DNA from: a bacterium
GTDB taxonomy: Bacteria > JADJOY01
Assembly (NCBI GenBank): GCA_046331705.1
Contig: JAXLQJ010000002.1
Span: 78,370-142,369, forward strand
Length of the DNA stretch: 64,000 nt
Reading direction: 5' to 3'
A program made the translations under genes and the position numbers. The notes under the pieces are model-generated. The model ran no database searches, had not been told where the DNA came from, and saw only the letters and a program-made list of their open reading frames with translations. This document shows, in pieces, positions 445 through 26,489 of this stretch. How positions within the stretch are numbered: the stretch's first letter is position 1; the number at the start of each line of letters is the position of its first letter.

Positions 445-2130
445 TCACGCGAGATACGTCTTCATGTAGCGGTCCATCTCGGACGTGGGCTTCCACCACT
501 TCCTGACGCCGAGATCCTCGGCGACGCTGTTGGCGCCCAGATATCCGGGCCCGCCCAGCACGAGCCCGCCGGGATAGGTCGACACGCCGCACACGTAGAG
601 ACCTTCGATCGGGGTGCGCGTGCTCGAGCAGTGCTCGTTCGGGCGGTAATAGCCCATCTGCAGCGGTCGATAGTCGCCGTGCTTGATCGAGCCGCGCCGC
701 ATGTGCGGAAAGCGGATCTCGATGTCCTCGGGGTCCTCCATCGAGCGGCTGACGATGTTCTCGGGCGTGAGGTTCGGCGCGGCCTTGCACCACTTGGCGA
801 GGATCGCTCGCTGGATCTCGTCGCGACGTGCGAGCCATCCGCCCTCGAGATCGTATGGGGCGTGGAGCTGGAACATCGAAACGTATTTCCCGGGCCGGTC
901 GCTCAGCGTCGGATCGAATTGGCTCTCGCAGGTCGAATGTCCGCCGAAGGCATTCAGATCCAGCTTGCCCTGGGCCACGTTCCCCCAATGCGCCAGCAGC
1001 GAATCGACGCCTTCGATCCCCACCACGGTGGCGAAGGCCTGATCGATCCAGGGGTCGTCCGAGCGGTACTTCGGGCGCTCGTTGGCGGCGATGTGAAGCG
1101 TGTTGAAACTCCACTTGTCCCATGCCCAGCCCTTCACCGAGTCCTTGAGCGCGGGCGTGAGGTGAGCCTCGCCGACCAGGTCGAGGAAGGTGGTGTGCGG
1201 ATCGAGCGTCGACATCACCACCTTGGCGCGCAGCTCGCGGTCCTCGTGGAAGAGATGGACGCCGACGGCGCGGCCGTTCTCCACGAGGATCTTGTCGACG
1301 GTGGCGGCTTCCAGGATCAGCCCGCCCCCCTTGAGCACCTGCCGTCCCAGGGCGCTCGCGAACTTGTGCGAGCCGCCGTAGCAGTAGCATTTGTTCATGG
1401 CGCGATCGATCATCAACGGCACCATGAAACCGAGGCCCGTCTCGCGAGGATCGAGCCCCCACATGCAGCTCGCGTAGAGCAAGAGCGCGCGCACCTTGTC
1501 GTGCTCGAAGGTCTCGGTGATGAGCTCGAGCGCGCTCTTCTCGCCCAGCTCCAGCATCTCTTGGCCGACCTTGGTGCGCTGCATCGCCATGGTGATCTCG
1601 ATGGGCGCCATGGGAGGGATGTAGGTCGCGGGCGCGATGATCTCGTCGACGATCTTGCGCCACTGGCGAATGACCTTGCCGAACCTCACCGAGTCCTTGA
1701 ACGAATACTTCGCGAAGGAATCCTTGGTGTCGTTCGCCATCTTGGCGAGCAGGATCGAGCGGCCGTCGTCGAACACCATCCCGGTCTGGCAATTCGGCCG
1801 GATCCAGGTCAGCGCCGGCCCGTCGAGGCCGAAGTCCCGGATGGCGGGCATGTAGTCCACCATCATGTGGTAGAGCACGTGCGGGTTCGACGAATAGCAG
1901 GGATAGAGATTCTCCTCGGTCGCGAGCCCACCCCCGGCCTCGAAGCGGCGCTCCACCACCGCGACGCTCAAGCCCGCCTGCGCGAGGTAGGCGCCGGCGA
2001 TGAGCCCGTTCGGTCCAGCGCCGATGATGACCACGTCGAACTCGCTTCGCTTCGGAAACTCCTCTTGCATGTGTCCGAAGGGATCGGACGGGTCGAACTC
2101 GAACTCGGACGTGTAGTTGAACTTGGGCAT
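445..2130 (-). CDS. FAD-dependent oxidoreductase, phytoene desaturase (CrtI) family, paralog 1
   Basis: N-terminal DVVIIGAGPNGL dinucleotide-binding motif and C-terminal RTPIEGLY motif; AGGACGAGG RBS before ATG (MPKFNYTSEF). Track ORF 445..2238 trimmed to this start. Confidence 0.8.
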   Translation of the reverse strand: MPKFNYTSEFEFDPSDPFGHMQEEFPKRSEFDVVIIGAGPNGLIAGAYLAQAGLSVAVVERRFEAGGGLATEENLYPCYSSNPHVLYHMMVDYMPAIRDFGLDGPALTWIRPNCQTGMVFDDGRSILLAKMANDTKDSFAKYSFKDSVRFGKVIRQWRKIVDEIIAPATYIPPMAPIEITMAMQRTKVGQEMLELGEKSALELITETFEHDKVRALLLYASCMWGLDPRETGLGFMVPLMIDRAMNKCYCYGGSHKFASALGRQVLKGGGLILEAATVDKILVENGRAVGVHLFHEDRELRAKVVMSTLDPHTTFLDLVGEAHLTPALKDSVKGWAWDKWSFNTLHIAANERPKYRSDDPWIDQAFATVVGIEGVDSLLAHWGNVAQGKLDLNAFGGHSTCESQFDPTLSDRPGKYVSMFQLHAPYDLEGGWLARRDEIQRAILAKWCKAAPNLTPENIVSRSMEDPEDIEIRFPHMRRGSIKHGDYRPLQMGYYRPNEHCSSTRTPIEGLYVCGVSTYPGGLVLGGPGYLGANSVAEDLGVRKWWKPTSEMDRYMKTYLA

Positions 2131-2152
2131 GGCCGAGCCTCGTCCTTTCGCC

Positions 2153-3877
2153 TCAACCGCGCTTCGCGGAGATCTTGCCTTGCTGCGGGATGTACCAAGG
2201 CGACGCGTACCACCAGTCGCCCGGCTCGGCGATGCCATCCTCGATGAGGATGTGCATGAGGTTGTAAGGGATCGCCATGAGGCAGAGCCCGCCTGGGTGC
2301 CCCGAGGTCTGATGCGCGTGGTAGAGGCCCTCGATCGGCGTGCGATAGCGCGCCAGCTCCTTGATCGGGCGGTTGGTCCAGAGCTGATCCTCGTCGTGGC
2401 GGCTGCCGCACCAGGTGCCGCCGATGAGCCCGGTGTTGCGGAACTCGACGTCGCGACCGGTGGCGCTCCAGTGGTGGATCAGGTTCGCGTCGTCCAGGCC
2501 GTCCACCATCTGGCCATACGCGGCGCGCATGTACGCATCCATCTCGGCCTTGTAGCGATCGAGGGCGTCCTCGCCTTCCTTGTGGAGGTCCGGCGACGTC
2601 ACCGCGACCTCGAAGGCGTTCGAGACGTAGCCGCGCCGATAGCTCGCCTGGCAGTCGGTGGGATCGAACGTCTGCGGCGGCGCGTGGAACCACATCACGC
2701 GCTCCGCCGGCACCACGGGTTGCCCTTTGTGCCCGTCCACGTCGGCGACGTTCTCGTAATAGATCTCGCGCGAGTCGCACGGATAGACGCCGAGCTGCGG
2801 GGTGCGCGCCGGACCCGCGCCGATACCTTTCGAGTCCGCGTGGGAGGCGAACTTCGCGTTGAGCCGGAGCGGCGTCTTGGTGTGAAAGACCGACACGTAG
2901 AGCGTCTGGTTCTTGAGGCTCACGTCCTTGATCTTCTGGATCACGCCCGGATCCAGGTGCTTCGGGCCGACCATCTTCAGGAACGCCTGGTGCACGTCGA
3001 CGGCGGCGATGACCGCCTTGTTCGCGCGGATGGTGCGACCGCCCATCGCCGCGGTCTCGCGGAGCCGCACGCCGATGGCACGACCATCCTCGATCAGGAT
3101 CTCTTCCACCGGACAGCAGGTGCGGACCATCGCGCCGTGGCTCACCGCAGCGCGATGGATCGCGTGGAAATAGCCGTGCAGACCGCCGCGCGGGATGCTG
3201 CGGTTCCCGGTGTTCGGAAGGGTGAGAAGCTGCACCGACGTCACCGCCGGGATCGCGACTCCCTCCCAGTGGCCCGCCGCCCCCGACGCCCAGGCCGCGA
3301 ACGCCATCGCGGTCTTGAAGTGCTCGGTCTCGCAGTGCTCGTCGAGCAGATCCAGCATCGTCATCTCGCGCAGCTCGTGCGTCCAGATGTCGGGCTGGTG
3401 CTGCTTGTAGACCTGCATGTACGGGACGTTGTCGTCCGTGACTTCCACCTCCGGCGGGTGCGGCGGGCACCAGAACGTCGCGCGCATCAGGTCGCGGGTG
3501 AAGGGCGGCGACCCCAACAACCCGCCGAGCTTCGCCCAGCCGAGCTTGTCGGTGTCGGAGATGGGCCGCCAGCCGTCCGTGCAGGCGAAGTCGGTGTTTT
3601 CCGTGAGCACGTCGTGGGGAGACCAATTCATGCGGAAACCGTGCTTGTGGAGCTCGAGCTGCTGGAAGCCCGGCGCCGGCGACGCGTACATGAGCATCGC
3701 GTGCGGAAAGATCCGCACGCCCGGGATCGGCTCCTGCGTCTCGCAGGCGCCGCCGCACTCGGTGCGCTCCTCGAGCACGCACACACTCAGGCCGCACTTC
3801 GCGAGGTACGCCGCCGTGGTCATGCCATTCGGCCCAGCGCCGACGATCACGATGTCGAACCGTTCGTCCTTGGCCAT
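2153..3877 (-). CDS. FAD-dependent oxidoreductase, phytoene desaturase (CrtI) family, paralog 2
   Basis: MAKDERFDIVIVGAGPNGM N-terminus with GGGAGG RBS; C-terminal RTPIEGLY motif. Track ORF 2153..4117 trimmed. Confidence 0.8.
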   Translation of the reverse strand: MAKDERFDIVIVGAGPNGMTTAAYLAKCGLSVCVLEERTECGGACETQEPIPGVRIFPHAMLMYASPAPGFQQLELHKHGFRMNWSPHDVLTENTDFACTDGWRPISDTDKLGWAKLGGLLGSPPFTRDLMRATFWCPPHPPEVEVTDDNVPYMQVYKQHQPDIWTHELREMTMLDLLDEHCETEHFKTAMAFAAWASGAAGHWEGVAIPAVTSVQLLTLPNTGNRSIPRGGLHGYFHAIHRAAVSHGAMVRTCCPVEEILIEDGRAIGVRLRETAAMGGRTIRANKAVIAAVDVHQAFLKMVGPKHLDPGVIQKIKDVSLKNQTLYVSVFHTKTPLRLNAKFASHADSKGIGAGPARTPQLGVYPCDSREIYYENVADVDGHKGQPVVPAERVMWFHAPPQTFDPTDCQASYRRGYVSNAFEVAVTSPDLHKEGEDALDRYKAEMDAYMRAAYGQMVDGLDDANLIHHWSATGRDVEFRNTGLIGGTWCGSRHDEDQLWTNRPIKELARYRTPIEGLYHAHQTSGHPGGLCLMAIPYNLMHILIEDGIAEPGDWWYASPWYIPQQGKISAKRG

Positions 3878-3930
3878 GAAGCCTCCCAGACTCGTCCCGT
3901 CACCCCACCGATCGACCGCCCCGGCGCCCG

Positions 3931-5559
3931 TCAGACGTAGCCCGCTTCTCGAGCCGCCGTGACGTACGTGGGCTCCGTCCACCACTTCGCGATCGCGAAG
4001 TCCTCGGCGATCGCGTTCGCGCAGTTGTAGCCAGGCCCGAAGATCACCATCCCCCCGGGCGCCGCGCTCGCGCCGCCGAGGTAGAGCCCCTTGACCGGCG
4101 TTCGATATTGCGAGCACTCCTGGTTCGGACGCAGGTAGCCCATCTGCAGCGGGTGGTACGCACCCTGCTTGTAGCTACCCCGCACCATGTTCGCGAACTT
4201 GTTCTGGAGGTCGGCAGGAGTCGTGAGATACGTCCACAACACGGCATCCTTGGTGAGGTTCGGAGCGTACCGACGAAGCACGGCGAGCTGCCGCTCGGCG
4301 GCCTCCTCTCGATACGCTCGATTCAGCCAACGTTCGGATCCCCCGTTCGCCAGCTCGAATGGCGCCATCTGGGAGATCAGTCCCGAGGCTCTCCCCGCGG
4401 GGGCTTGAAACGGATCGTGCCGGCTCGGAAAGCAGCAGTTGAAACCCGCGGCGTCCGGCATCTCGCCCCGCCCCATCGCATCCCAGTGGCTTTTCAGATC
4501 CGCCAGCGACTCGTAACCGAGGACGTAGATGAACGCGTCGTCGATCTCCGGCTCCTTCTCCGCGGCGGTGAAATGCGGCTGCTCGGCGAGGGCCAAGTGC
4601 TGGACGGCCAGGCTCCACTTCTCCCACTGCCACACACGCAGCATCTCGACGAACTCCTCGTCGAGCTTCTCCTCGCCCACGTACTTCAAGAAGGTCTGAT
4701 GGGTGTCGATGGTGCTCACGACGGCCTTGCTCGCCGCGTAGCGCGTCCCGTCCACGAGCTCGACGCCCTTGGCGACGTTGTTCTCGACCACGATCCGAGC
4801 GATCTGCGCGTTGGTTCGGATCTGACCCTTCTGCTCGAAGATCGATTTCAGCAGCGCTCCCGACACGCGGTGCGAACCGCCCACCGTGAGGCGATAATTC
4901 GCCATGCGATTCAAGTAGATCGGCACCATGTAGCTGACGCCCGACTGCGAATAGTCGAGCCCCCAATGACACGCCATGTAGAGCATCAGCGTTCGCACGT
5001 GCTCGTTCTCGAAGAGCTCGCAGACGATCTCTTCCGGCGTCTTCTCCGTGTACTCCGAGAGTGCTCGGCCGAGCTCCGTCATCTCCGCCCGCGCCGCCAT
5101 GAGCGGCGCCGCGTCCATCGGCACGTACGTCTGCGGCCCCAGGATGTGAGTCATCAGCTCGCCGAAGCGACGCTGCATGTCGCGGTAAGTATCCGCGTCT
5201 CGTCTCGAGAACCGAGCGATGGAAGCGCACGATCGCTCGACGTCGTGGTGAATGCAGAGCGCTCGCCCGTCCGCGAGCGGCATCGCGACCTGAAGCTCGG
5301 GGCGGATGTGTCGAACGCCGTATCGCTGCTCGAACTCGAAGTCCGAGTAGACCGGCGCGTAGTCGACCATCATCATGTAGACGGCGTGGGTGTTGTGATA
5401 GAAGTCCGGCAGCGTCACTTGCTCGGTGCAAAGGCCTCCTCCTGCTTCGAAACGTTTTTCGAGCAGCAACACCTTCTGCCCGGCCTTGCTCAGATACGCC
5501 GCGATGGCGAGCCCGTTCGGACCGCTTCCGATGACGATCACGTCGTAGACTTGCGTCAT
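3931..5559 (-). CDS. FAD-dependent oxidoreductase, phytoene desaturase (CrtI) family, paralog 3
   Basis: MTQVYDVIVIGSGPNGL N-terminus; C-terminal RTPVKGLY motif; 542 aa ORF. Confidence 0.8.
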   Translation of the reverse strand: MTQVYDVIVIGSGPNGLAIAAYLSKAGQKVLLLEKRFEAGGGLCTEQVTLPDFYHNTHAVYMMMVDYAPVYSDFEFEQRYGVRHIRPELQVAMPLADGRALCIHHDVERSCASIARFSRRDADTYRDMQRRFGELMTHILGPQTYVPMDAAPLMAARAEMTELGRALSEYTEKTPEEIVCELFENEHVRTLMLYMACHWGLDYSQSGVSYMVPIYLNRMANYRLTVGGSHRVSGALLKSIFEQKGQIRTNAQIARIVVENNVAKGVELVDGTRYAASKAVVSTIDTHQTFLKYVGEEKLDEEFVEMLRVWQWEKWSLAVQHLALAEQPHFTAAEKEPEIDDAFIYVLGYESLADLKSHWDAMGRGEMPDAAGFNCCFPSRHDPFQAPAGRASGLISQMAPFELANGGSERWLNRAYREEAAERQLAVLRRYAPNLTKDAVLWTYLTTPADLQNKFANMVRGSYKQGAYHPLQMGYLRPNQECSQYRTPVKGLYLGGASAAPGGMVIFGPGYNCANAIAEDFAIAKWWTEPTYVTAAREAGYV

Positions 5560-5656
5560 GAGATCCCTCGCGCCTCACTCGCGCCTCACGCGCGCCTCTC
5601 GCGCGCGGCGCGCAGCGCCCTCGCGGGGCTTCGCGCTTGCCATCGATGCGAAACGC

Positions 5657-7384
5657 TCACGCGACCCGCGGTCGGGCGTTCGCCTGCACCCGACGTTTCA
5701 CGATCTTGATCTGCTCGACCAGCGAGTCCGGCTCTTCCTTGCCTGGCTCGAGCCAAGGTTTCGCGAGCCCCAGATCCGCCGCGATGATCCGATAGCAGTT
5801 GTAGGCCTCCGTCGCTCCCGCGTTCGAGCCGACGTGCCACGCGCCGCCCGTGGCATAGAGGTTGGCGATCGGCGTGCGATGGTTCGCGAGCTCGGGCGTC
5901 GGACGGTTCTCGTCGGTCTGGAACGGCGAGCGATCGACGCCCGCCATGGTGCCGTTGGGACCGAGGTTCTTCATGCGGCGGTGATCGAACGAGCAGTTCG
6001 TATCGACGCCGATCACGTTGTCCCAGGTCATGTTGGGCGCGTAGTCCTGCCAGATCGTGATCAGCTCGTCGGCGTAGCGTTTCTTGATCTCGAGCCATTG
6101 CCGCTCGCTGAACGCCGTGGCGGGCGGTCCGAGCTGCTCGTTCTGGACGACGTGCTTTCCCGGAGGCGCGAAGCTCGGATCGACGAGGCTGTGACAGCCC
6201 ACCGTCGGCGCGTAGTCCTCGAGCGGCGGGAACTTCTGAAGCTTCTGGTACCAGCACTCGCGCGCCAGGTGCATCGGGTCGGGATCGGGCTGGAGCCCGA
6301 GCCACTGGCACTCGTGAATGTCCGGGTTGAACGCCTCGGCCTTGTACTTGGGCGCCGCGTGGACCGCGAAGCTGTACCACATGAGGCAGCCGAAGGTGTC
6401 TTGCAACAGCTCGACGCGCCGGCGCAGCAAGCCGTCCACGTGCTCCGCGCCGATCAGATCGAAGATCAATTGGTGCGGCGAGAGCGTGCTGACGACGATC
6501 TTGCGCGCCGCGATCTCGCTGCCGTCCGCGAGACGGATCCCGGTGGCGCGACCATTCTCGATGATGGCCTTGCTGACCGGTGAGCTGGTGAAGAACCGGC
6601 AGCCCCTCTGGATGAGGATCTGATGAGCCGCGTGCGCGATCTGGTGAGTGCCGCCGCGGTTGAAACCGATCGTCGGGAGCGTGGCCGCCATGCCCATCGT
6701 GGTCATGCCGGTGCCCGCTTCGTTGATGTCGACCACCGACGAGATGGCGAAACGCAGGATGCAGGATTGAAGCTCGGGAGACTCGAACCACTCCTGCGCG
6801 GCTCGTAGCCCGCTCGCCTTCATGGTCAACGTGTCCGGCGTGAAACCGTTCTCGAGCAGCGTCGGATAGAGCATCGCCTGGCGCTCCATGACGTCGCCCG
6901 AGATTCGTTCGTCGGCGGGCTTGAACAACGCGTCCACGAGCACCCGCAGGTATTCGTCGGTCTCGGTGAGCTTGGCGAGCCGACGCCAGGTATCGGCGTC
7001 GCGCTCCGAGAAGCGGGCGATCTCGTTGGCGGTCCGCTCTTGGGTGGGATCGTGCTTGACGCTGTAGATCGCGAGACAGCTCTCGGTGTCCCGGAACACG
7101 AAGCCGTCCGCGCACGTGTGCTGATCCCACTGCGCGCCGTAGTCCCAGAACTCGGGGAAGTCGCGCCACACGGGCGCGTAGTACCAGGGCAGGATGATGT
7201 TCGCGTGCGTGTTGCCGCGAAAGCCGGGGGCCGACGTCTCCTCGGTCGCGAGACAACCGCCGACCTCGTGACGGCGCTCGAAGATCCCGACGCTCATGCC
7301 GGCGTACTTCGTCAGGTACATCGCGAGCAACAGCGCCTTGTTGCCGCCCCCCACGATCACCGCGTCGAACGCCGCGTCGGCCAT
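5657..7384 (-). CDS. FAD-dependent oxidoreductase, phytoene desaturase (CrtI) family, paralog 4 (divergent GGGNKA nucleotide-binding loop)
   Basis: MADAAFDAVIVGGGNKAL N-terminus; C-terminal RTPIANLY motif; GAAGGGAG RBS before ATG. Confidence 0.75.
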   Translation of the reverse strand: MADAAFDAVIVGGGNKALLLAMYLTKYAGMSVGIFERRHEVGGCLATEETSAPGFRGNTHANIILPWYYAPVWRDFPEFWDYGAQWDQHTCADGFVFRDTESCLAIYSVKHDPTQERTANEIARFSERDADTWRRLAKLTETDEYLRVLVDALFKPADERISGDVMERQAMLYPTLLENGFTPDTLTMKASGLRAAQEWFESPELQSCILRFAISSVVDINEAGTGMTTMGMAATLPTIGFNRGGTHQIAHAAHQILIQRGCRFFTSSPVSKAIIENGRATGIRLADGSEIAARKIVVSTLSPHQLIFDLIGAEHVDGLLRRRVELLQDTFGCLMWYSFAVHAAPKYKAEAFNPDIHECQWLGLQPDPDPMHLARECWYQKLQKFPPLEDYAPTVGCHSLVDPSFAPPGKHVVQNEQLGPPATAFSERQWLEIKKRYADELITIWQDYAPNMTWDNVIGVDTNCSFDHRRMKNLGPNGTMAGVDRSPFQTDENRPTPELANHRTPIANLYATGGAWHVGSNAGATEAYNCYRIIAADLGLAKPWLEPGKEEPDSLVEQIKIVKRRVQANARPRVA

Positions 7385-7455
7385 CCGGACTCCCTTCTCT
7401 CGTCATCCGCCTGTCGATCGATACGGTGACTCCCCTGCGTCTTGTGCCACGCAGC

Positions 7456-7704
7456 TCAGAAATCGCCGGGATGGATCGGCGGCTTGAACCACGCGCGGAT
7501 GCGCAGCACGAAGGACACCACCGACATCGTGAGCATCGCCTTGAGAATGACGAGGATGTCCTGACGACTCACGGCACCGCGGATCTTCCAGCGCACCGGC
7601 TGAGTCGTTTGCATCTCCATGATGAGGTAATCGCCTTGAGCCTTCAGCGAGACCATCTCCGCCACCAGCTCCGCCTTGCCGAGTCCCGTCGATCGCATCA
7701 GCAT
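7456..7704 (-). CDS. small hypothetical protein with hydrophobic C-terminal segment (82 aa)
   Basis: High-GC3 minus frame; GAGGTGG RBS before ATG; putative TM stretch ILVILKAMLTMSVVSFVL; sits between the operator region and the oxidoreductase quartet. Confidence 0.45.
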   Translation of the reverse strand: MLMRSTGLGKAELVAEMVSLKAQGDYLIMEMQTTQPVRWKIRGAVSRQDILVILKAMLTMSVVSFVLRIRAWFKPPIHPGDF

Positions 7705-7759
7705 CGTTCGTCCACCTCGCTCGTGTCTCGAAAACCCGACCGGCCTCGATCGGCGCGCC

Positions 7760-8101
7760 TCAACTCATCGCCTCGAGATACTTTTCGAGGATGTGGCTCA
7801 TGATCTGCGCCGTCTGCGCCCGCGCTTTTCTGAGCGCGGGATTCGAATGGAGGAAGATGAGGTCGTCGAGCTCTTCGTCGGTGAAGGTCTCCGAGTAGAC
7901 GTACTCCGTGATCGCGATCGCTTGCTGGAAATCGTGGTGGTACTCGTCCTTTGCTTGCTGGAGCTCGGCCGCGAATCGTTCGTTTCCGTCGTTCTTGGCC
8001 TTCGCGATGAAGTACGTGAGCGCGAACTCGACGATGCTCGAATAGTGCGCGTGCGACTCCGATTCGCGCAGGTACTCGCGGGTCTTCTCTATCGATGCCA
8101 T
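7760..8101 (-). CDS. hypothetical protein (113 aa)
   Basis: ORF 7760..8347 trimmed to ATG at 8101 (MASIEKTREYLRESESHAHY); composition distinct from shadow ORFs; first gene downstream of the palindromic operator region on the minus strand. Confidence 0.55.
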   Translation of the reverse strand: MASIEKTREYLRESESHAHYSSIVEFALTYFIAKAKNDGNERFAAELQQAKDEYHHDFQQAIAITEYVYSETFTDEELDDLIFLHSNPALRKARAQTAQIMSHILEKYLEAMS

Positions 8102-8285
8102 GCGTGGCTCCGGGCAGTGGGCGAAGCGCGACGAGGCGCGCCCGGGCGCGTCGGCGCGAGCGCCGACGAGCTCGCAGAGGTTGCTTTCGCGTGAACCGAG
8201 CGCGTCGCGGAGAGTCGCGCGGAAGGTCTCGGTTGGGTGCGGATTCGAGTCACGACGTTCGCGTTTCGATTCCACCGCATGCGAA

Positions 8286-8301
8286 GTAGAACATGTTCTA
8301 C
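8286..8301. promoter_or_regulatory. perfect 16-bp palindrome GTAGAACATGTTCTAC, KstR-type (TnnAACnnGTTnnA) operator-like site
   Basis: Read directly; core TAGAACATGTTCTA fits the TetR/KstR-type consensus; lies in an AT-richer divergent intergenic region. Confidence 0.55.
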
Positions 8302-8475
8302 TCGACGGTATTTCAGGTGCGCAAGCAACTTGCGTGACCTGCAGCACGCAACGATGAAATATTTTTCGAATGGCTCACGGCGCGACGAGACGGTGCGCGG
8401 CGAGAATTTCGAGCGATCGAAGCGCTGGGTGACGGGCGTCACATTTTCAGCCGGCGGCGCTGTTCCATGATGCAA

Positions 8476-8491
8476 GTAGAACGTGTTCTAA
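8476..8491. promoter_or_regulatory. second operator-like palindrome GTAGAACGTGTTCTAA
   Basis: Core TAGAACGTGTTCTA is a perfect 14-bp palindrome fitting TnnAACnnGTTnnA; about 75 bp upstream of the acyl-CoA dehydrogenase start. Confidence 0.55.
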
Positions 8492-8562
8492 TCGAACCGA
8501 CGCGCCGCGGACGGACGGCGGCGGCACAGGCGATCCGCGGCGGATCGTGGAGCGAGCACGGC

Positions 8563-9744
8563 GTGGACTTCGAGCTCAGCCCGGAACAGCACGCGCTGCG
8601 GCGAGAGCTTCGGCGTTATTACCGCGAGCTCTTCACGCCCGAGCTGCGGGCGGCCCTCGACGCCGAATGGCACGAGGTGGGCGGTCCGGTGTTCCGCGAG
8701 GTGGTCGGACGCATGGGGGCGGACGGCTGGCTCGGCATCGGCTGGCCGCGCGAATACGGCGGCCAGGGCCGGACCGCGATCGAGCAGCTCATCTTCTGGG
8801 ACGAGACCTACCGGGCGCGCGCGCCGCTTCCCGTCATCTCGGTGAACACCGTCGGTCCCACGCTGATGCGCTACGGCACCGAGGACCAGAAGGCACGGCT
8901 GCTCCCGGGAATCCTGCGAGGCCAGCTCTTCTTCGCGATCGGCTACACCGAGCCCGGCGCGGGGACCGATCTCGCCTCACTCAAGACGCAAGCCCGCCGC
9001 GACGGTGACGAGTACGTCATCCAGGGACAGAAGGTCTTCACCACCCACGCGCACGACGCCGACTACGTGTGGCTGGCCGCCCGCACCGATCCCGAGGCGC
9101 CGAAGCACAAGGGCATCAGCATCATCCTGGTGCCCACCAGCACGCCCGGCTTCTCGGTGACTCCGACCTACACGCTCGGCGGCGAACGCACCAACACCAC
9201 GTACTTCGACGAGGTGCGCGTGCCGATCGCGAACCGGGTCGGCCCCGAGCACGGCGGCTGGCAGCTCATCACCGCGCAGCTCAATCACGAGCGCATCACG
9301 CTCGCAGCACCCGGCCTCGCCGATCGGTTGCTCGAAGAGGTCTGGCAATGGGCTCGGCGCACGCGCGGCCCCGACGGCGCGCCGATCGCCTCGGCGCCGT
9401 GGGTGGAGCTGTCGCTGGCGCGCGTCTACGCGAAGCTCGAGGCGCTCAAGCTCCTCAACTGGCGCTCCGCGTGGTCGATGTCGGAGGGCGTGCCGCGGAT
9501 GGCCGAGGCCTCCGCGCTCAAGGTGATGGGCACCGAGTTCTTCGGCGAGTGCTACCGGCTGCTGCTCGAGATCACCGGCGCCGCCGGCCTGGTTCCCCAA
9601 GGGGAGACCGGAGCGCTCTTCGGTGGCTTGCTGGAGCAGGCGTACCGGGGCGCCACCACGCTCACCTTCGGCGGTGGCGTGAACGAGGTGCAGCGCGATC
9701 TCATCGCGTGGTCGGGACTCGACCTGCCGAGGTCGCGAGGCTGA
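8563..9744 (+). CDS. acyl-CoA dehydrogenase
   Basis: VDFELSPEQHALRREL N-terminus typical of ACADs; C-terminal GGGVNEVQRDLIA; start moved from 8467 to in-frame GTG at 8563, because the 8467 start overlaps the operator palindrome. Confidence 0.8.
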   Translation: MDFELSPEQHALRRELRRYYRELFTPELRAALDAEWHEVGGPVFREVVGRMGADGWLGIGWPREYGGQGRTAIEQLIFWDETYRARAPLPVISVNTVGPTLMRYGTEDQKARLLPGILRGQLFFAIGYTEPGAGTDLASLKTQARRDGDEYVIQGQKVFTTHAHDADYVWLAARTDPEAPKHKGISIILVPTSTPGFSVTPTYTLGGERTNTTYFDEVRVPIANRVGPEHGGWQLITAQLNHERITLAAPGLADRLLEEVWQWARRTRGPDGAPIASAPWVELSLARVYAKLEALKLLNWRSAWSMSEGVPRMAEASALKVMGTEFFGECYRLLLEITGAAGLVPQGETGALFGGLLEQAYRGATTLTFGGGVNEVQRDLIAWSGLDLPRSRG

Positions 9745-9754
9745 CGAGGCAAAC

Positions 9755-10744
9755 ATGGCCGCCACCCCATCCGATCGCGAGCAGCTCGAGACGAGACTCA
9801 AGGGGTTCGCGGGCATCGCCGCGGGGCCGCCGGAGATCGCCCGCGACGTGGTGGAAGCCGCGACGATCCGCCAATGGTGCGATGCCCTCGACGATCGCAA
9901 CCCGATCTACACCGACCCCGCGGCCGCCGCCGCGTCGGTCCACGGCCGTGTGGTCGCTCCGCCCACCATGCTGCAGGCGTGGGTGCTGCCGGGCATCGAG
10001 ATGGCCAGCGGGGTCGCGCGCCCCGGCGACAAGCAGCGCGAGCTGCACGCGCTCCTCGACCGCCACGGCTACACCGGCGTCGTGGCCACCAATTGCCAGC
10101 AGGGCTACGACCGCTATCTGCACCTGGGCGAGCGCGTGACCGGCACCACCGTCATCGAGTCGATCTCGGGCGAGAAGGCGACCGCGCTCGGTATCGGCTA
10201 CTTCATCGACACGCGCACCACCTTCCGCGACGACGACGGCGAGCGCGTGGGATGGATGACGTTCCGCGTGCTCAAGTTCAAGCCCGCAGCGCCCCCTGCC
10301 GCGAGCGAGCGCGACGCCGCGGGCGCGCCCGTCAAGCCCCGGCGGCTGCGGCCCGCGCTGGGTCACGACAACGCGTGGTGGTGGGAAGGGATCCGCCGCG
10401 GCGAGCTGCTCATCCAGCGCTGCAAGAGCTGCGGCCACCTGCGCCATCCGCCGCGACCGATGTGCGGCGAGTGCCGTTCGCTCGAATGGGACGCGCTCTC
10501 CTCGAAGGGCCACGGCAGCGTCTACAGCTTCGTGGTGATGCACCACCCGCAGGTGCCCGGCTACGAGTACCCGCTCATCGTGGCCCTCGTCGAGCTCGAC
10601 GAAGGCACCCGGCTGATCGCGAACCTCACGGGCATCGAGCCCCGCGCCGTGCGCATCGGGCTGCGGGTCGCGCTCGCCATCGAAGCCGTCGATCCCGAGC
10701 TCAGCTTGCCGTTCTTCCACCCCGACACCACCGCACCGGGCTGA
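9755..10744 (+). CDS. MaoC-like hydratase fused to C-terminal DUF35 OB-fold/Zn-ribbon domain (ChsH2-like architecture)
   Basis: N-terminal hot-dog-like region; C-terminal CKSCGH...CGECRS zinc ribbon followed by an OB-fold-like segment; the same two-domain layout as mycobacterial ChsH2. Confidence 0.8.
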   Translation: MAATPSDREQLETRLKGFAGIAAGPPEIARDVVEAATIRQWCDALDDRNPIYTDPAAAAASVHGRVVAPPTMLQAWVLPGIEMASGVARPGDKQRELHALLDRHGYTGVVATNCQQGYDRYLHLGERVTGTTVIESISGEKATALGIGYFIDTRTTFRDDDGERVGWMTFRVLKFKPAAPPAASERDAAGAPVKPRRLRPALGHDNAWWWEGIRRGELLIQRCKSCGHLRHPPRPMCGECRSLEWDALSSKGHGSVYSFVVMHHPQVPGYEYPLIVALVELDEGTRLIANLTGIEPRAVRIGLRVALAIEAVDPELSLPFFHPDTTAPG

Positions 10745-10746
10745 CC

Positions 10747-11883
10747 ATGGATTTCGCGCTCGACGAGGATCAGCAGTCGCTCCAGGCGCTGGCCCGCCAG
10801 ATCTTGGAACGGGAGGTCACGCCAGCGCGGATTCGCGCGGCGCTGGCGAGCGCGGACGGCATGGATCACGCGCTCTGGTCGACGCTCGCCGACGCGGGCC
10901 TCCTGGGGATCGGCGTTCCCGAGACGCACGGCGGCCTCGGCGGCGGTCTCGAGGCGCTGAGCTTGCTGCTGGTCGAGGTGGGGCGCGCCGTGGCGCCCGT
11001 GCCGGCGCTCGCGTCGCTCGCGCTGGCGGGCCTCGCGATCGCGCGTTTTGGAACCGAGCGGCAACGCGCCGAGCTGCTCGCGCCGCTCGCCGCGGGCCGG
11101 ACCGTTCTCACCGCGGCGCTCGTCGACGGCGAATCGTCCGATCCCCTCCGCCCCGCATGCAGCGCGCGACGCGACGGCGCGAGCTGGGTGATCGACGGCT
11201 CGAAGCGCCAGGTGCCCGCGATCGCCGCCGCCAGCGCGATCGTCGTGCCCGCGCGCACCGAAGGCGGCGTCGGTCTCTTCGTGGTGCCGCCGAGCGCCGC
11301 CGGCGTCGAGCCGAGCCGCCGGCGCTGCTCGAGCGGCGAGCCGATCGCCGATCTGGCCCTCACGGGCGTGCGCGTGGACGCCGACGCGCTGCTCGGCACG
11401 GCGGCGCCCGTCGGCGACGACGCGAGCCGCTGGCTCCACGAGCACGCGCTCGCCGCGACTTGCGCCGTGCACCTGGGTGTCTGCGAGCGCGCGCTCGAGC
11501 TGACCCGCGACTACGTTCGCGAGCGGCGTCAGTTCGGCGTGCCGATCGGCTCGTTCCAGGCGGTGAGCCATCGCGCCGCCGATGGCTTCATCGACGTCGA
11601 GTGCATCCGCTGGACCACCTGGCAGGCGGTGACGCGGGTGGCGCGCGGCCTCGACGCGACCCGCGCGCTCGCCGTCGCGAAGTTCTGGGCCGCCGAGGGC
11701 GGAGCGCGCGTCACCAGCTCCGCGCAGCACCTCCACGGCGGCATCGGCGCCGACCTCGACTACCCGATCCACCGCTATTTCCTGTGGTCGAAGGCGCTCG
11801 AGCTGAGCCTCGGCGGTGCCACCGAGCAGCTCGCGAGGCTCGGTCGCGATCTGGTGACCCGCGGCCCGGAGGTGCTCGCATGA
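10747..11883 (+). CDS. acyl-CoA dehydrogenase (second subunit-like)
   Basis: MDFALDEDQQSLQALARQILEREV start 3 nt after the upstream stop. The track ORF 9874..11883 is an artefactual 5' extension in this frame. Confidence 0.8.
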   Translation: MDFALDEDQQSLQALARQILEREVTPARIRAALASADGMDHALWSTLADAGLLGIGVPETHGGLGGGLEALSLLLVEVGRAVAPVPALASLALAGLAIARFGTERQRAELLAPLAAGRTVLTAALVDGESSDPLRPACSARRDGASWVIDGSKRQVPAIAAASAIVVPARTEGGVGLFVVPPSAAGVEPSRRRCSSGEPIADLALTGVRVDADALLGTAAPVGDDASRWLHEHALAATCAVHLGVCERALELTRDYVRERRQFGVPIGSFQAVSHRAADGFIDVECIRWTTWQAVTRVARGLDATRALAVAKFWAAEGGARVTSSAQHLHGGIGADLDYPIHRYFLWSKALELSLGGATEQLARLGRDLVTRGPEVLA

Positions 11884-12308
11884 ACGACTGCGCGCTTCGC
11901 CTTCGCGACGTGAACGTGGGCGACGTGCTGCCCGAGCTGGCGATCGACGTCACCACCACCCTGATCGTCGCAGGCGCCCTCGCCTCGCACGACTTCACGC
12001 CCGTTCACCACGACAAGGCCGCTGCCCGAGCGCAGGGCTTGAACGACGTGTTCATGAACATCCTCACGACCAACGGCCTGGTGGGGCGCTACGTCACCGA
12101 TTGGGCCGGGCCGAACGCGCGGCTCACCGGCGTCGCGATCAAGCTCGGAGCGCCCAACCTGCCCGGCGACACGATGCGCATGTCGGGCGTCGTCAAGAGC
12201 AAGGACGACGCGCGCGGCTCCGTCGAGGTCGAGGTCACCGGCAAGAACTCGTGGGGAAACCACGTGACCGCGACGGTCGCGTTGCTGCTGCCCGAGGACG
12301 CCGCGTGA
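11880..12308 (+). CDS. MaoC family dehydratase, small hot-dog subunit (ChsH1-like)
   Basis: ATGA start/stop overlap with the upstream gene; GGAGG RBS; 142 aa MNDCALRLRDVNVGDV...; tail of track ORF 11157..12308. Confidence 0.75.
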   Translation: MNDCALRLRDVNVGDVLPELAIDVTTTLIVAGALASHDFTPVHHDKAAARAQGLNDVFMNILTTNGLVGRYVTDWAGPNARLTGVAIKLGAPNLPGDTMRMSGVVKSKDDARGSVEVEVTGKNSWGNHVTATVALLLPEDAA

Positions 12309-12357
12309 CGGCGCAGCTCCCGTCCGGACGCGCACCGAGCAGCGAGCGGAGCCACGC

Positions 12358-13530
12358 ATGCCCACGACGTTGAGGGATCAGGCCGCGATCGTCGGCATCG
12401 GCGAGACCGACTACTCGAAGAACTCGGGGCGCTCCGAGGTTCAGCTCGCCAGCGAAGCGGTCGCCGCCGCCCTCGACGACGCCGGGCTGCGCCCCTCCGA
12501 CGTCGACGGCATGACCACGTTCACCCTCGACTCGAGCGACGAGATCGAGGTGGCGCGTGCCGTGGGCATCCGCGACCTCACGTTCTTCAGCCGCGTGCCC
12601 CACGGCGGCGGCGCCGCGGTCGGCGTGGTCCATCAAGCGGCGATGGCGGTCGCCACCGGCGCGGCGCGCACGGTGGTGTGCTACCGCGCGCTCAACGGCC
12701 GCTCGGGTCAGCGCTACAGCTCCGGCGTCGCCGACGGGCCGACCACCTCCGATCTCATCCATTGGAGCTGGTACATGCCCTTCGGCCTCATGACGCCCGC
12801 GAGCTGGGTGGCGATGTTCGCCCAGCGCTACATGCACGAGTACGGCGTCACCAGCCTCGACTTCGGGCGGGTCGCGGTGTCGACGCGCAAGCACGCGGTG
12901 CGCAATCCGCGAGCGTTCTTCCACGGCAAGCCGCTCTCGATCGCCGAGCACCAGGCGTCGCGGCTGATCGTCGAGCCGTTGCGTCTCTACGATTGCTGCC
13001 AGGAGACCGACGGCGGCTGCGCCTGCATCGTGACCACGCCCGACCGCGCGCGCGATTGCCGCCAGCCCGCCGCGACGATTCGCGGCGTCGCGCAAGGCTC
13101 GTGCGCCGATCAGGAAGTGATGACCAGCTTCTATCGGCCGAGCATCTCCGGGCTGCCCGAGATGGACCTGGTGGCGCGCCAGGTCTACGACGTCTCGGGC
13201 TTGCGCCCAGACGACGTGGACGCGGCGGTGATCTACGACGCCTTCTCGCCCATCGTGCTGTGGCAGCTCGAGAGCTTCGGCTTCTGCAAGGTCGGCGAAG
13301 CGCGCGATTTCGTGAACGGCGGCAATCTCGAGATCGGCGGGCGCCTGCCGAGCAACACCCACGGCGGGCAGCTCAGCGAGGCCTACGTCCACGGCATGAA
13401 CGGCGTGAACGAGGGCGTGCGGCTGATCCGCGGCACCTCGTGCAATCAACCGCGGCGCAACGATCACGTGCTGGTCACCGCCGGCGTGGGCGTTCCGACC
13501 AGCGCCATGATCCTCGGCAAGACCGCGTGA
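12358..13530 (+). CDS. thiolase-like lipid-transfer protein (SCP-x type, Ltp2-like)
   Basis: IVGIGETDYSKNSGRSE thiolase-like N-terminus; CCQETDGGCACIV; GGAG RBS. Confidence 0.8.
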   Translation: MPTTLRDQAAIVGIGETDYSKNSGRSEVQLASEAVAAALDDAGLRPSDVDGMTTFTLDSSDEIEVARAVGIRDLTFFSRVPHGGGAAVGVVHQAAMAVATGAARTVVCYRALNGRSGQRYSSGVADGPTTSDLIHWSWYMPFGLMTPASWVAMFAQRYMHEYGVTSLDFGRVAVSTRKHAVRNPRAFFHGKPLSIAEHQASRLIVEPLRLYDCCQETDGGCACIVTTPDRARDCRQPAATIRGVAQGSCADQEVMTSFYRPSISGLPEMDLVARQVYDVSGLRPDDVDAAVIYDAFSPIVLWQLESFGFCKVGEARDFVNGGNLEIGGRLPSNTHGGQLSEAYVHGMNGVNEGVRLIRGTSCNQPRRNDHVLVTAGVGVPTSAMILGKTA

Positions 13531-14799
<1,269 letters not shown>

Positions 14800-14874
14800 G
14801 CTTCCGCGCCGACCAGCGGACCGCGTCGAACCACGCGAGGACCTCGACAACCCGAGCATGCGGAGGAGCTGGCG

Positions 14875-15810
14875 ATGACGACGAACGCGAGGCCGCTCGA
14901 AGGGAAGGTCGCGATCGTGACGGGCGCGGGACGTGGGCTGGGACGCGCCGAAGCGCTGGCGCTCGCCGCGCACGGCGCGCGCGTGGTGATCAACGACCTC
15001 GGCGTGGCGGGGGACGGCTCGGGCGCGGACGAGGGCCCCGCACGCGAGGTGGTGGCCGAGATCGAGCGCGCCGGTGGCGAGGCGATCGCCCATTTCGGCG
15101 ACGTCGCGCGCTGGGACGACGCGGCGGCGCTGGTGGCGCGGGCGGTCGACGTGTTCGGCGATCTGCACGTCCTCGTGAACAACGCCGGCTTCAGCCGCGA
15201 TCGCATGATCTTCAACATGTCGGAGCAGGATTGGGACTCGGTGATCCGCGTCCATCTCAAGGGCCATTTCTGCACCTCGCGATTCGCCACCGCGCATTGG
15301 AGGGAGCAGGCGAAGGTCGCGGGTGGCCCGGTCTACGGGCGCATCGTCAACACCGCGTCCGAGGCGTTCCTGTTCGGACCGGCCGGGCTGGCCAACTACG
15401 CCGCCGCGAAGTCGGGAATCGTCGGCCTCACCGTCGCCACCGCGCACGCGTGCGAGAAATACGGCGTGACGGCCAACGTGGTGTGCCCGCGGGCACGCAC
15501 CCGCATGAACAGCGAAGGGAGCCTCGGCGCGCTGTTCGCCAAGCCCGAGCAGGGATTCGACACCTACGACCCCGCCAACGTGGCGCCGCTGGTGGCGTAC
15601 CTCGCGTCGCCTGCCGCCGGGCGCATCAACGCCCACGTGTTCCTGGCGTGGGGAACGCAGGTCTGCTTGATCGGCGCGCCGCGCGTCCTCGAGACCTTCA
15701 CGAGCGACGCGCGCTGGACGGTCGACCGGCTCGACGAGCGCGTCGGCCGCTACCTGGAGACCCGCGATCCCGCCTCCACGGCGTTCGCCGCCGAGCTTCC
15801 CGGGATCTGA
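14875..15810 (+). CDS. SDR family oxidoreductase, MFE-2/Hsd4A-like hydroxyacyl-CoA dehydrogenase
   Basis: [13 protein letters not shown] cofactor motif, [14 protein letters not shown] segment, YAAAK catalytic motif; GGAGGAG RBS. Confidence 0.8.
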
Positions 15811-15832: not shown

Positions 15833-16615
15833 TCAGGACGCCTCGGCCTTCTCGATCAGCTTCCAGAGCAGCTTGGGCGCGAAGCGCCGGAGCCCGAGCA
15901 AGAACTTCGCCTCGCCGGTGGGGAAGACGATCTCGTCGCCGCGCTCGAGCGCTTCCTCGACCAGCTCCACGATGCGCTCCGGCTTCGCCAGCCGGCCCTG
16001 CTCGATGCCGATCTGGATCGAACGCGGATTGGATCCCTCGATCGCCTGCTCGAGCAGCGGCGTGTCCACCATCGGCGGACAGACGAGCAGGATGCGCACG
16101 CCGCTACCGCGATTCTCGTGGATCAACACCTCGGCGAAGATGTTCACCGCCGCCTTGCTGGCGTTGTAGGCGCCGAGGTGCGGAGTGGGCACCAGGCCCG
16201 CGAGCGAACCGTAGAAGATCCAGTCGCCCGCGCGGCGCGCGACCATCGCGGGCAAGGTGGCGGTGGCGAGATGGAGGGTGCCTTCGTAGTTGATGCGCAT
16301 GACGCGGCGGATGGTCTCGACCGGCATGGTCAGCAGCGGCGCCGTGGGCATGATCGCCGCCGCGTGAGTCACGCGGTCGACGGCGCCGAGCTCCGCGCCG
16401 ACGCGCTCCACGGTGGCGCGCACCTCGTCGAGATTCGCGAGGTCGCAGCGATAGGTGCGCACGCTGGCGCGCCCGGCGGCGGTGCGCGCGAGCCCCTCTT
16501 CGTTCACGTCGAGCGCCGCGACCGTGGCCCCCGCGTCGGCCAACCGCCACGCGGAGAGTTGCCCCATGCCACTGGCGGCGCCGGTGACCAAGGCGAGCTT
16601 CCCGTGAAAGGCCAT
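15833..16615 (-). CDS. SDR family oxidoreductase
   Basis: MAFHGKLALVTGAASGMG start (ORF 15833..16705 trimmed to ATG at 16615); YNASKAAV catalytic motif. Confidence 0.75.
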   Translation of the reverse strand: MAFHGKLALVTGAASGMGQLSAWRLADAGATVAALDVNEEGLARTAAGRASVRTYRCDLANLDEVRATVERVGAELGAVDRVTHAAAIMPTAPLLTMPVETIRRVMRINYEGTLHLATATLPAMVARRAGDWIFYGSLAGLVPTPHLGAYNASKAAVNIFAEVLIHENRGSGVRILLVCPPMVDTPLLEQAIEGSNPRSIQIGIEQGRLAKPERIVELVEEALERGDEIVFPTGEAKFLLGLRRFAPKLLWKLIEKAEAS

Positions 16616-16732
16616 CTGCGTTCCCCCCGCCCGCGGTCGCGCGCCTCGCGCGCGCGAGCGCCGAGCATACGTTTCACCCGCGCGACCACCCGTGACCTCG
16701 ATCACCCTGCTCGCACGTGCCCGACTGCGCCC

Positions 16733-16761
16733 TTGACCCTGGATCGGCGGGCCGGTAATAG
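16733..16761 (+). promoter_or_regulatory. sigma70-like promoter candidate TTGACC-N17-TAATAG
   Basis: Read in an AT-richer intergenic stretch about 45 bp upstream of the sterol desaturase-family gene; GGAGG RBS follows. Confidence 0.3.
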
Positions 16762-16806
16762 TGATTCTGAATTTAGGAATGCTGGTTTTTGAGCGGGAGG
16801 CTCTGC

Positions 16807-17484
16807 ATGTCGGTCGCCGTCGCCGTCGCGATCACGATTGGAATGGTGATGTCCGCCTTCACGATGGGGGCGGTGGTGTGGGGCTTCTACTCGCCGATCA
16901 GCGCCAACATCCGCATCCGGGAAGAGAAGGCGCGCAAGCTCAAGGGCTGGCCGGTGGCGCTGCGGATCGGGCTCAACGGGCTGTTCTCGTCGGGACTCGT
17001 GTACCTGCTCGCGCTGGCCTTGCAGCACCAGCTCTTCTACGCGGCGCGCCCGTCGCTGGCGCGGCTCGCGTTCGAGTCGGTCGCGGTGCTCGTCGTCTAC
17101 GACTTCCTCTACTACTTGCTGCACCGCTATCCGTTTCACGCGTGGCCGGGCTTGCGCGAGGTGCACGCGGTCCATCACCGCGCCAAGTACCCGATCGCGT
17201 TCGACAGCCTCTACCTGAATCCCATCGAGACCCTCGCCGGTCTCGCCTTGCTCACCTTCTGCACCTGGCTGGTCGGGCCGGTGAGCGTGCACGCGTTCGG
17301 GCTGATCTTCTTGGTGTACTCGCAGATGAACATCCTGGTTCACTGCGGGCTCGATCTGCCCGGCGCGCTCCGGCCGTTTGGCTTCATGGCGCGCAAGCAC
17401 GACGCGCATCACCGGCACATGAAGGCCGGCAACTTCGCGTCGCTGACTCCGATCTGGGATCGGCTCTTCCGCACCGCGGAGTGA
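16807..17484 (+). CDS. sterol desaturase / fatty acid hydroxylase superfamily membrane protein
   Basis: Histidine boxes HRYPFH, HAVHHR and HDAHHRH in a hydrophobic protein; start set at ATG 16807 behind GGAGG. Confidence 0.8.
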   Translation: MSVAVAVAITIGMVMSAFTMGAVVWGFYSPISANIRIREEKARKLKGWPVALRIGLNGLFSSGLVYLLALALQHQLFYAARPSLARLAFESVAVLVVYDFLYYLLHRYPFHAWPGLREVHAVHHRAKYPIAFDSLYLNPIETLAGLALLTFCTWLVGPVSVHAFGLIFLVYSQMNILVHCGLDLPGALRPFGFMARKHDAHHRHMKAGNFASLTPIWDRLFRTAE

Positions 17485-17543
17485 CGCCGAGCGGCGCCGG
17501 CGCTCGCTCCCGCTGCCTGCCGGACGGCGACCGCCGCTTCCCG

Positions 17544-25533: not shown

Positions 25534-26403
25534 ATGGACATGACCCTGAGCCTGCCCCGGCGCTTCGAGCGCGCCTACCCGCCCACCCTCCCCGCCGCTG
25601 GCGCGGCTCGTTGGCTGGTGTTTCGCGGCGAGGAGCTGGTGGTGAGCGAGTGCGGCACCACCGTCGAGCTGCTCACGGGCGACGCGCTCGGCTGCGGTCT
25701 CGGCGCCGAGGTCCGCGAGATCGTCCACCTGGGGCGCCTCGACGGCGTGAGCTGCCTCGCGGGCAGCGTCCCCGGCGATGCGCACCTCGACGAGGGCCTG
25801 CGGACGATGGACCTGCGCACCCTCTTCGAGCATCTGCCCGCGGACCTCTACGCGGTCGCCGGCTACGCCTACCAGCTGGTGCGCTGGCAGCGAGCGAGCC
25901 GCTTCTGCGCCTTCTGCGGCGCCGCGACCGGCCCGGTGGAGGGCGAGTGGGGGCGGCGCTGCGGCGGCTGCAACCACGTGACCTACCCGCACGTCAGCCC
26001 GTGCGTGATCGTGCTGATCCACGACGGGGGCGATCGGTTGCTGCTCGCGCATCGGCGCGGCCGCGGCGCGATGCGCAGCTTGATCGCGGGCTTTCTGGAG
26101 CCGAGCGAGAGCCTGGAAGAGGCGCTCCGGCGCGAGGTGCGCGAGGAAGTCGGGCTCGAGATCGACGACATCCGCTACTTCGCGAGCCAGCCGTGGCCGT
26201 TCCCGCACCAGCTGATGGTGGGGTTCTTCGCGCGGCACGCGGGCGGCGAGGTGCGGCCGGACGGCGACGAGCTCGACGAGGCGCGCTGGTACGACGTCGA
26301 CGATCTGCCGACGCTTCCCGGTCCGATCAGCATCGCGCGCCGGCTCATCGACGCGTTCGTGACCGACCGGATCGCGCTCCGCTCGGCTGGACGGAACGAC
26401 TAG
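25534..26403 (+). CDS. nudC: NAD+ diphosphatase (NudC-type NUDIX hydrolase with zinc ribbon)
   Basis: CAFCGAATGP...CGGCNHVTYP zinc ribbon followed by Nudix box GFLEPSESLEEALRREVREEVG; tail of track ORF 24376..26403 from ATG 25534. Confidence 0.8.
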   Translation: MDMTLSLPRRFERAYPPTLPAAGAARWLVFRGEELVVSECGTTVELLTGDALGCGLGAEVREIVHLGRLDGVSCLAGSVPGDAHLDEGLRTMDLRTLFEHLPADLYAVAGYAYQLVRWQRASRFCAFCGAATGPVEGEWGRRCGGCNHVTYPHVSPCVIVLIHDGGDRLLLAHRRGRGAMRSLIAGFLEPSESLEEALRREVREEVGLEIDDIRYFASQPWPFPHQLMVGFFARHAGGEVRPDGDELDEARWYDVDDLPTLPGPISIARRLIDAFVTDRIALRSAGRND

Positions 26404-26489
26404 AACGCGTTTCAATCCGCCGCCGTCACCGCGCCGGAGCCGGGCTCGCCGCCGGGCGCCCCGAGGCGCGTGCCCCCCGAGGTCCACTC

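Follow-up and report, generated by a model that had tools for sequence, protein, structure and literature searches.

The TetR-family repressor KstR (Rv3574), which the literature treats as an actinobacterial regulator, recognizes the palindrome TAGAAC(N2)GTTCTA with the core TnnAACnnGTTnnA (Kendall et al. 2007, PMC1995591), and Ho et al. (2016) are cited for its induction by a steroid acyl-CoA. In mycobacteria and rhodococci the KstR operators are intergenic, often between divergent genes, and lie at or beside the −10 element; one site precedes Rv3504 in the Rv3503c/Rv3504 region, and two copies of the motif occur within a single divergent region in the case of Rv3570c/Rv3571 (PMC1995591). Two further systems are close in kind, i.e. 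PsrA of Pseudomonas, which also has a TetR-type palindrome upstream of Gram-negative β-oxidation genes, and EdcR of Caenibius tardaugens, likewise Gram-negative, a TetR repressor that responds to steroids and whose palindromic operators lie in divergent promoters (PMC8700777). In the present paper we describe three KstR-type palindromes in a 64,000-nucleotide stretch of bacterial contig JAXLQJ010000002.1 (the whole stretch is called the window below), whose host lies outside the known, actinobacterial range of KstR operators. These palindromes are very likely to be functional repressor operators, and our favoured reading, to which we give a probability of roughly 0.68, is that they would serve a dimeric KstR-type TetR-family repressor encoded outside the window.

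Two of the palindromes lie in the 461 bp intergenic control region (8102..8562) that separates two divergent operons. Site 1 (8286..8301, core 8287-8300) has the sequence GTAGAACATGTTCTAC and is a perfect 16-bp palindrome, and site 2 (8476..8491, core 8477-8490), with the sequence GTAGAACGTGTTCTAA, ends 72 nt upstream of the GTG start codon of a ChsE4-like gene. A 22-nt direct repeat, AAGTAGAACnTGTTCTAnTCGA, is common to both with a spacing of 190 bp. A preliminary description of this DNA had reported these two palindromes, the first as a perfect 16-bp one, and had compared them with a KstR consensus; its coordinates proved exact, and the consensus that it gave was correct, since TAGAAC(N2)GTTCTA with the same core is the published motif (PMC1995591). 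Site 3, TAGAACGCGTTTCA (26401..26414), lies 76 nt upstream of the ATG at 26490. The half-sites are separated by N2 in all three sites and in all of the relatives. The centre of site 1 (8288-8299) reads AGAACATGTTCT, in which both half-sites of the glucocorticoid/androgen response element of vertebrates (AGAACAnnnTGTTCT) follow one another without the 3-nt spacer, a resemblance that is almost certainly coincidental.

Comparison with the published operators shows that sites 1 and 2 carry all 12 specified bases of the KstR palindrome and that site 3 retains the 8-base core exactly and matches the full palindrome at 10 of 12 positions. The 16-mer TAGAACGTGTTCTAAT in site 2 is the operator of the M. 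tuberculosis kstR gene's own promoter (PMC1995591), site 1 is the same as the Rv3520c/21 site across TAGAACnTGTTCTACTCG, and site 3 is one base apart, in the unspecified centre, from the Rv3545c/Rv3546 site that was positive in the electrophoretic mobility-shift assay. All 47 KstR sites published for M. smegmatis and M. tuberculosis were also used to build a symmetrized 16-bp weight matrix, under which these training sites themselves score 14.7-28.7 bits with a median of 24.0. Sites 2, 3 and 1 score 25.1, 24.1 and 22.8 bits respectively, which is mid-range among genuine KstR sites, and the next-best position in the window reaches 9.4 bits; in 20 shuffles the best scores averaged 10.8 bits with a maximum of 19.9 bits. 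A scan of the 64-kb window gave three matches to TAGAACNNGTTCTA with no more than two mismatches, compared with 0.23 expected, and none of 100 dinucleotide-preserving shuffles of the window yielded three such matches. The looser core TNNAACNNGTTNNA retrieved the same three sites, with 0.17 expected.

We then compared the sites with those of related genomes. Short contigs L001-L006 belong to the same species, and three more distant loci, L007, L008 and L009, with approx. 89% amino-acid identity, have sites 1 and 2 at orthologous positions, 187-188 bp apart. Site 1 is identical in all three (16/16) amid flanking intergenic DNA that is only 40-57% identical, and site 2 keeps all 12 specified core positions, with variation confined to the N2 centre. 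In the comparison with L009, for example, the whole intergenic region is 47% identical and the neighbouring spacers 35-43%, and yet the sites score 16/16 and 12/12 respectively. Site 3 is likewise identical in L148/L149 (87% amino-acid identity; L148 comes from the same metagenome-assembled genome, or MAG, as L007) and in L150 (78%), with diverged flanks, and in L150 it no longer touches the upstream stop codon. Elsewhere in approx. 1.04 Mb of related loci we found no perfect match to the motif. All three sites are phylogenetic footprints amid intergenic DNA that is 35-60% identical.

When metagenomes were scanned more widely for the ChsE4-like protein, 55 loci were obtained, among them 19 contigs that combine 65-82% ChsE4 identity with an unchanged gene order and enough upstream sequence to be used. 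The core motif was present 46-131 bp upstream of the chsE4 start in 11 of these 19, with the half-site variants TAGAAC, TGAAAC and TGTAAC, which are identical to the mycobacterial variants; the preferred centre, GT/AC, is also common to the relatives of the window and the mycobacterial KstR sites. Several of these contigs have a recognizable σ70-like promoter directly ahead of the motif. L091, L109 and L141 read TTGCAA-17-CATAGT, followed after 7 nt by TAGAACGTGTTTCA; in L097 (TTGAAC-17-CATAAT) and L103 (TTGAAC-17-AATAAT) the variant TGAAACACGTTTCA comes directly after the promoter, in L106 TTGCCG-17-AATATT abuts TGAAACACGTTTCA, and in L094 and L137 TTGACC-17-CATGGT precedes the site. Such a placement is classic for a repressor that occludes RNA polymerase. 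The tetranucleotide signatures of L097, L103 and L106 correlate with that of the window at r values of 0.97-0.98, and L097 and L103 have a gene for a large signal-peptide protein upstream. Contigs with approx. 50% identity (e.g. L113, L126-L134 and L136) are actinobacterial-looking and have a true kstR gene (E values of 1e-78 to 1e-82) beside the sites.

The genes downstream of the sites are of the kind that KstR controls. On the plus strand, 8563..15810 is predicted from Pfam domains and PDB matches to be a sterol side-chain degradation operon of the igr/Chs type. It begins with the ChsE4-like acyl-CoA dehydrogenase (ACAD; 8563-9744), which scores 450 bits with 4X28_A, compared with at most 159 bits for ordinary ACADs; we take 4X28 to be the M. 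tuberculosis ChsE4–ChsE5 (FadE26–FadE27) complex, and Rv3504 to be fadE26, the orthologue of this gene downstream of site 2. There follow a ChsH2-like protein with MaoC and DUF35 domains and a strong match to M. tuberculosis ChsH2 (9755-10744; matches to 6OK1_B and 4WNB), a second ACAD in the place of ChsE5 (10747-11883), a MaoC/ChsH1-like protein (11880-12308), an Ltp2-like protein (12358-13530) that scores 531 bits with 6OK1_A, the Ltp2 of T. curvata, a thiolase (13627-14799) and a short-chain dehydrogenase/reductase (SDR; 14875-15810), all on the plus strand. As in igr/Chs operons, genes for an ACAD pair, ChsH1/ChsH2 (MaoC and DUF35) and the Ltp2 aldolase stand together, and the gene order is kept in relatives. 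Automated gene calls in related contigs use the ATG at 8467 (425 amino acids), which swallows site 2 in a spurious N-terminal extension. Aligned orthologues place the start at the GTG at 8563 (393 amino acids), where L007 and L008 have ATG. Upstream of this codon the DNA is poorly conserved and contains indels, and site 2 is therefore non-coding. Downstream of site 3, also on the plus strand, are a 3β-HSD/epimerase-family gene (26490-27479; PF01073, 3.7e-22) and a 3-oxo-5α-steroid 4-dehydrogenase-family gene (27487-28248; PF02544, 1.8e-50), a member of the eukaryote-type steroid 5α-reductase family. With ChsE4, ChsH2, Ltp2 and the 3β-HSD family among them, the predicted targets of the three sites resemble a KstR regulon.

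The divergent operon on the minus strand is less familiar. Its first gene (7760..8101, with the start ATG at 8101) encodes a 113-amino-acid protein and its second (7456..7704) an 82-amino-acid protein, for neither of which did Pfam and NCBIfam scans give a match. They are followed, at 445..7384, by four paralogous CrtO/CrtI-like FAD oxidoreductases (5657-7384, 3931-5559, 2153-3880 and 445-2130, or 445-2238), which have Pfam Amino_oxidase and NAD_binding_8 domains and match the NCBIfam CrtO model with E values of 1e-30 to 1e-68, far under the curated cut-offs; the nearest solved structure, CrtI (4DGK), scores 39 bits only. In Binatia MAGs the 113- and 82-amino-acid genes always stand ahead of the four CrtO-like genes, and their products could be partners or carriers for the CrtO-like enzymes. 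Only the clade of the window has the CrtO-like and side-chain operons back-to-back. These family scans and PDB matches agree with the preliminary description, in which a quartet of CrtI-type genes and an igr-like operon flanked the sites, as do our measurements with its remark that 7400-8500 is poorer in G+C: the content there is 0.605 (0.548 at 8260-8500) compared with 0.693 for the whole window. Beyond the left edge of the window, past the fourth CrtO-like gene, the corresponding regions of L007 (12100-16613), L008 (8522-12102) and L009 (17425-20463) hold another CrtI-like FAD oxidoreductase and a conserved 259-amino-acid protein whose family was not recognized; L007 and L008 also have a small helical protein and a methyltransferase-like open reading frame (ORF), and an ORF that resembles an ACAD is present in L007. 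All of these were assigned by visual inspection of the translations, and the presence of the further genes in relatives suggests that the steroid-type island reaches past the window.

Within the intergenic region, the candidate promoter of the 113-/82-amino-acid/CrtO-like operon lies on the minus strand at 8295..8324, with a putative −35 element TTGCGC (8324-8319), an 18-nt spacer and a putative −10 element TAGAAC (8300-8295) inside site 1; CTTGCG does not vary among the five sequences of the alignment. For the ChsE4 operon our guess in the window clade is a weak −10 element, CATGAT, at 8466-8471, 5 nt upstream of site 2. Between the two operators there is a conserved central block, CGCAAG..CGTGAC..CACGCAACGATGAAATATTTT (8320..8366), which is 75-85% identical with L007-L009, the neighbouring spacer being 35-60% identical; CGCAA/TTGCG elements recur in this block alongside a run rich in A+T, and it may hold promoter elements or the site of a second regulator. 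We rejected a small ORF that would begin at 8354, as the ATG there is ACG in L009, and a σ54 promoter reading of GGTCACGCAAGTTGC was rejected by inspection, its GG-to-GC spacing being off by one. A further palindrome, GTGACGGGCGTCAC (8429..8442; GTGA-N6-TCAC), is kept in L007, L008 and L009, and its centre lies approx. 42 nt upstream of the point at which we guess that transcription of the ChsE4 operon begins. The consensus of the CRP family is TGTGA-N6-TCACA, so that this element resembles a CRP-family site at the place expected for a class II activator-dependent promoter. A strict terminator scan of the intergenic region gave nothing relevant.

According to the reading that we favour, a KstR-type dimer, encoded elsewhere, would bind each palindrome and block RNA polymerase. 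Site 2 would coincide with the promoter of the ChsE4–ChsH2–ChsE5–ChsH1–Ltp2–thiolase–SDR operon or follow it closely, so that the bound repressor would block that promoter; site 1 would overlap the likely −10 element of the divergent 113-/82-amino-acid/CrtO-like operon, and site 3 would control the 3β-HSD-like/5α-reductase-like pair 18 kb away. By analogy with KstR of M. tuberculosis, a steroid acyl-CoA intermediate would release the repressor. The identity of the regulator, the positions of the window promoters and the inducer are what we infer here, and we consider it fairly probable that a KstR-family regulator is encoded elsewhere in the genome. In common with the KstR system, the window has intergenic sites, two of which share one divergent region, and targets among which are the orthologue of fadE26/chsE4 and genes of the 3β-HSD type; if the putative promoters are correct, its operators would also lie at or beside −10 elements. 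It differs in that its host is Gram-negative and Binatia-like, whereas the hosts of the KstR system are actinobacterial, in that there is no regulator gene in or near the cluster, and in that the sites would control the CrtO-like quartet, two small proteins and a steroid 5α-reductase-family gene, which are not part of the described KstR regulon. The base flanking the half-site differs also, being G/A-TAGAAC in the window, but mostly C-TAGAAC in mycobacteria. TolQ, TolR, TolB, Pal and HrcA are encoded in the window, and the genomes nearest to it, with up to 89% amino-acid identity, are MAGs that bear the label Candidatus Binatia or ‘Deltaproteobacteria bacterium’. The Tol–Pal genes and these nearest MAGs identify the host as a diderm rather than an actinobacterium, and the MAG labels point to the Binatota.

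Several results weigh against a KstR-type regulator. A strict σ70 promoter scan of 7700-8700 found none, and the overlap of operator and promoter in the window is therefore something that we can only infer. Searches by phmmer with AcrR/TetR/QacR N-terminal domains and M. tuberculosis KstR (a query verified against PDB 5UA2) revealed no TetR gene in the 64-kb window, as the preliminary description had already stated, or in L007-L009, the orthologous loci of 13-22 kb, and there was no KstR-like gene in any contig of the Gram-negative-like group. A word-index search of protein databases with KstR gave mycobacterial matches only. An exhaustive search of representatives yielded approx. 90 full-length KstR-like proteins, of which 30 cluster look-ups returned only actinobacterial names or unnamed metagenomic entries; a profile of the distant representatives gave Streptosporangiales-type matches again, and a plasmid collection contained KstR homologues in Actinobacteria only. 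Every named KstR homologue that we retrieved is thus actinobacterial. Six of the unnamed KstR-like proteins could be placed on contigs and none was tied to the window lineage, as these contigs had either actinobacterial-like genes (L087 and L154) or an unspecific tetranucleotide signature (r values of 0.60-0.93, which overlap the 0.92-0.93 of named Binatia loci). A review likewise describes KstR homologues as absent from bile-acid-degrading Proteobacteria. Finally, sister Binatia lineages have the same 113-/82-amino-acid/CrtO-like operon with other palindromes. In L010 (9090), L011 (9033), L019 (9075), L021 (9100) and L022 (8983) the element is AAACAAACGTTTGTTT or a form 1 nt shorter, directly after a TTGACA-17-TAAnCC promoter in L010, L019 and L021; L015/L016 (9820-9845) have ATTGTACTGA-N4-TCAGTACAAT beside a local TetR gene, and L093, L095 and L108 have AAACGnnCGTTT at the operator position upstream of chsE4. 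The TetR genes of L015/L016 were considered as the regulator and rejected, as the palindrome that accompanies them is another one and they do not resemble KstR. The occurrence of different palindromes at the same operator position in sister lineages indicates that the repressor has been replaced repeatedly.

The distant KstR-like proteins have 36-41% identity with M. tuberculosis KstR and the domains PF00440 and PF17925 (TetR_N and TetR_C_20), and they keep the helix–turn–helix segment GGYDAVQMR.VA.RA.VALGTLYRYFPSK. In L086 and L151 the motif stands upstream of the KstR-like gene itself, and there are further copies elsewhere in L086, L151, L154 and L157, so that the motif tracks the family across wide divergence. 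Within the window, the only DNA-binding candidates are HrcA and a 437-amino-acid protein (37654-38967), 29 kb from the operators, with weak sub-threshold matches to HTH_31 and NUMOD1, and there is no reason to tie the latter to the palindromes.

The principal alternative is that the sites are operators for another repressor, either a PsrA/FadR-like TetR protein of the Gram-negative type or a member of a different family whose specificity has converged on this palindrome, in control of lipid and steroid β-oxidation genes. This would suit a Gram-negative host with Tol–Pal genes, the failure of database searches to tie any KstR homologue to the window lineage and the observation that relatives differ in the regulators of the same operons. 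The PsrA consensus, (C/G)AAAC-N2-4-GTTT(G/C), also fits the TGAAACACGTTTCA variants of L097, L103 and L106, which is a further point against KstR, and the sequence TGAAAC-AC-GTTTCA fits both consensuses. However, the AGAAC half-sites of sites 1 and 2 each deviate from the PsrA consensus at two positions and only one half of site 3 fits it, and PsrA itself responds to long-chain fatty acids and typically has N4 spacing. EdcR is no closer, as it represses oestrogen degradation through an unrelated palindrome, TnnCnnTACnAnTnGTAnnGnnA (PMC8700777). The spectrum of half-site variants and the GT/AC centre, in contrast, are those of the mycobacterial KstR sites, the matrix places the three sites in the middle of the range of true KstR sites and the target genes are orthologous to known KstR targets. 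We therefore consider a non-KstR repressor unlikely, although it is the most serious of the alternatives.

The other two explanations fare considerably worse. GAAC/GTTC half-sites are shared with the LexA/SOS box of Gram-positive bacteria, the Cheo box GAAC-N4-GTTC, but N2 instead of N4 separates the half-sites throughout, in the window as in the relatives, the genes beside them serve catabolism rather than DNA repair and there is no lexA or recA nearby, so that this identification is effectively refuted. It might also be supposed that the palindromes are chance, non-functional repeats or form RNA hairpins in a leader transcript, given that they are able to form hairpins, that a leader of approx. 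185 nt would precede the 113-amino-acid gene and that the strict scan found no promoter consensus. Against this, a 2-nt loop is poor for a hairpin and an Rfam search of 8102..8562 gave no match; moreover, the variants at orthologous promoters keep the protein-binding consensus without compensatory pairing. Chance can be excluded because of the statistics, with three sites observed and 0.2 expected, and the footprints, in which conservation is perfect amid diverged flanks. Taken together, we regard chance repeats or hairpins as very improbable and LexA boxes as more improbable still, and we retain operators of a KstR-type repressor as the preferred reading.

Between the side-chain operon and site 3, the region 15833-21654 holds further lipid- or steroid-style genes that lack a KstR-type site. 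These encode a second SDR (15833-16618, minus strand), a membrane protein of the fatty-acid hydroxylase/sterol desaturase family (16789-17484), a flavin oxidoreductase of the Old Yellow Enzyme type (19468-20643, minus strand) and an enoyl-CoA hydratase (20869-21654).

The third site and the wide conservation in relatives strengthen the case beyond that made in the preliminary description, and the window probably contains, to judge by its operators and their predicted targets, a KstR-like sterol regulon outside the Actinobacteria. The novelty lies in the host and in the content of the regulon, the mechanism being already known. That such a regulon exists in an uncultured diderm (Binatota-like) phylum, through either ancient sharing or acquisition together with actinobacterial-type Chs genes, and that its operators mark the four CrtO-like flavoproteins, the two small proteins and the eukaryote-type 5α-reductase homologue as new members of bacterial steroid metabolism, is a tentative proposal, to which we give somewhat less than even odds, and the alternative, that an unrelated regulator has converged on the exact KstR palindrome, would be equally unusual. 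The operons of the sister lineages, which have different palindromes at the same promoter position, illustrate regulator turnover. If our reading is correct, the palindrome would be a simple sequence marker by which steroid-responsive genes could be predicted in metagenomes, and the CrtO-like quartet with its 113- and 82-amino-acid partners and the bacterial 5α-reductase homologue would become candidates for steroid-transforming proteins. Sterol catabolism and the logic of its control would then extend to an uncultured, environmentally widespread phylum.

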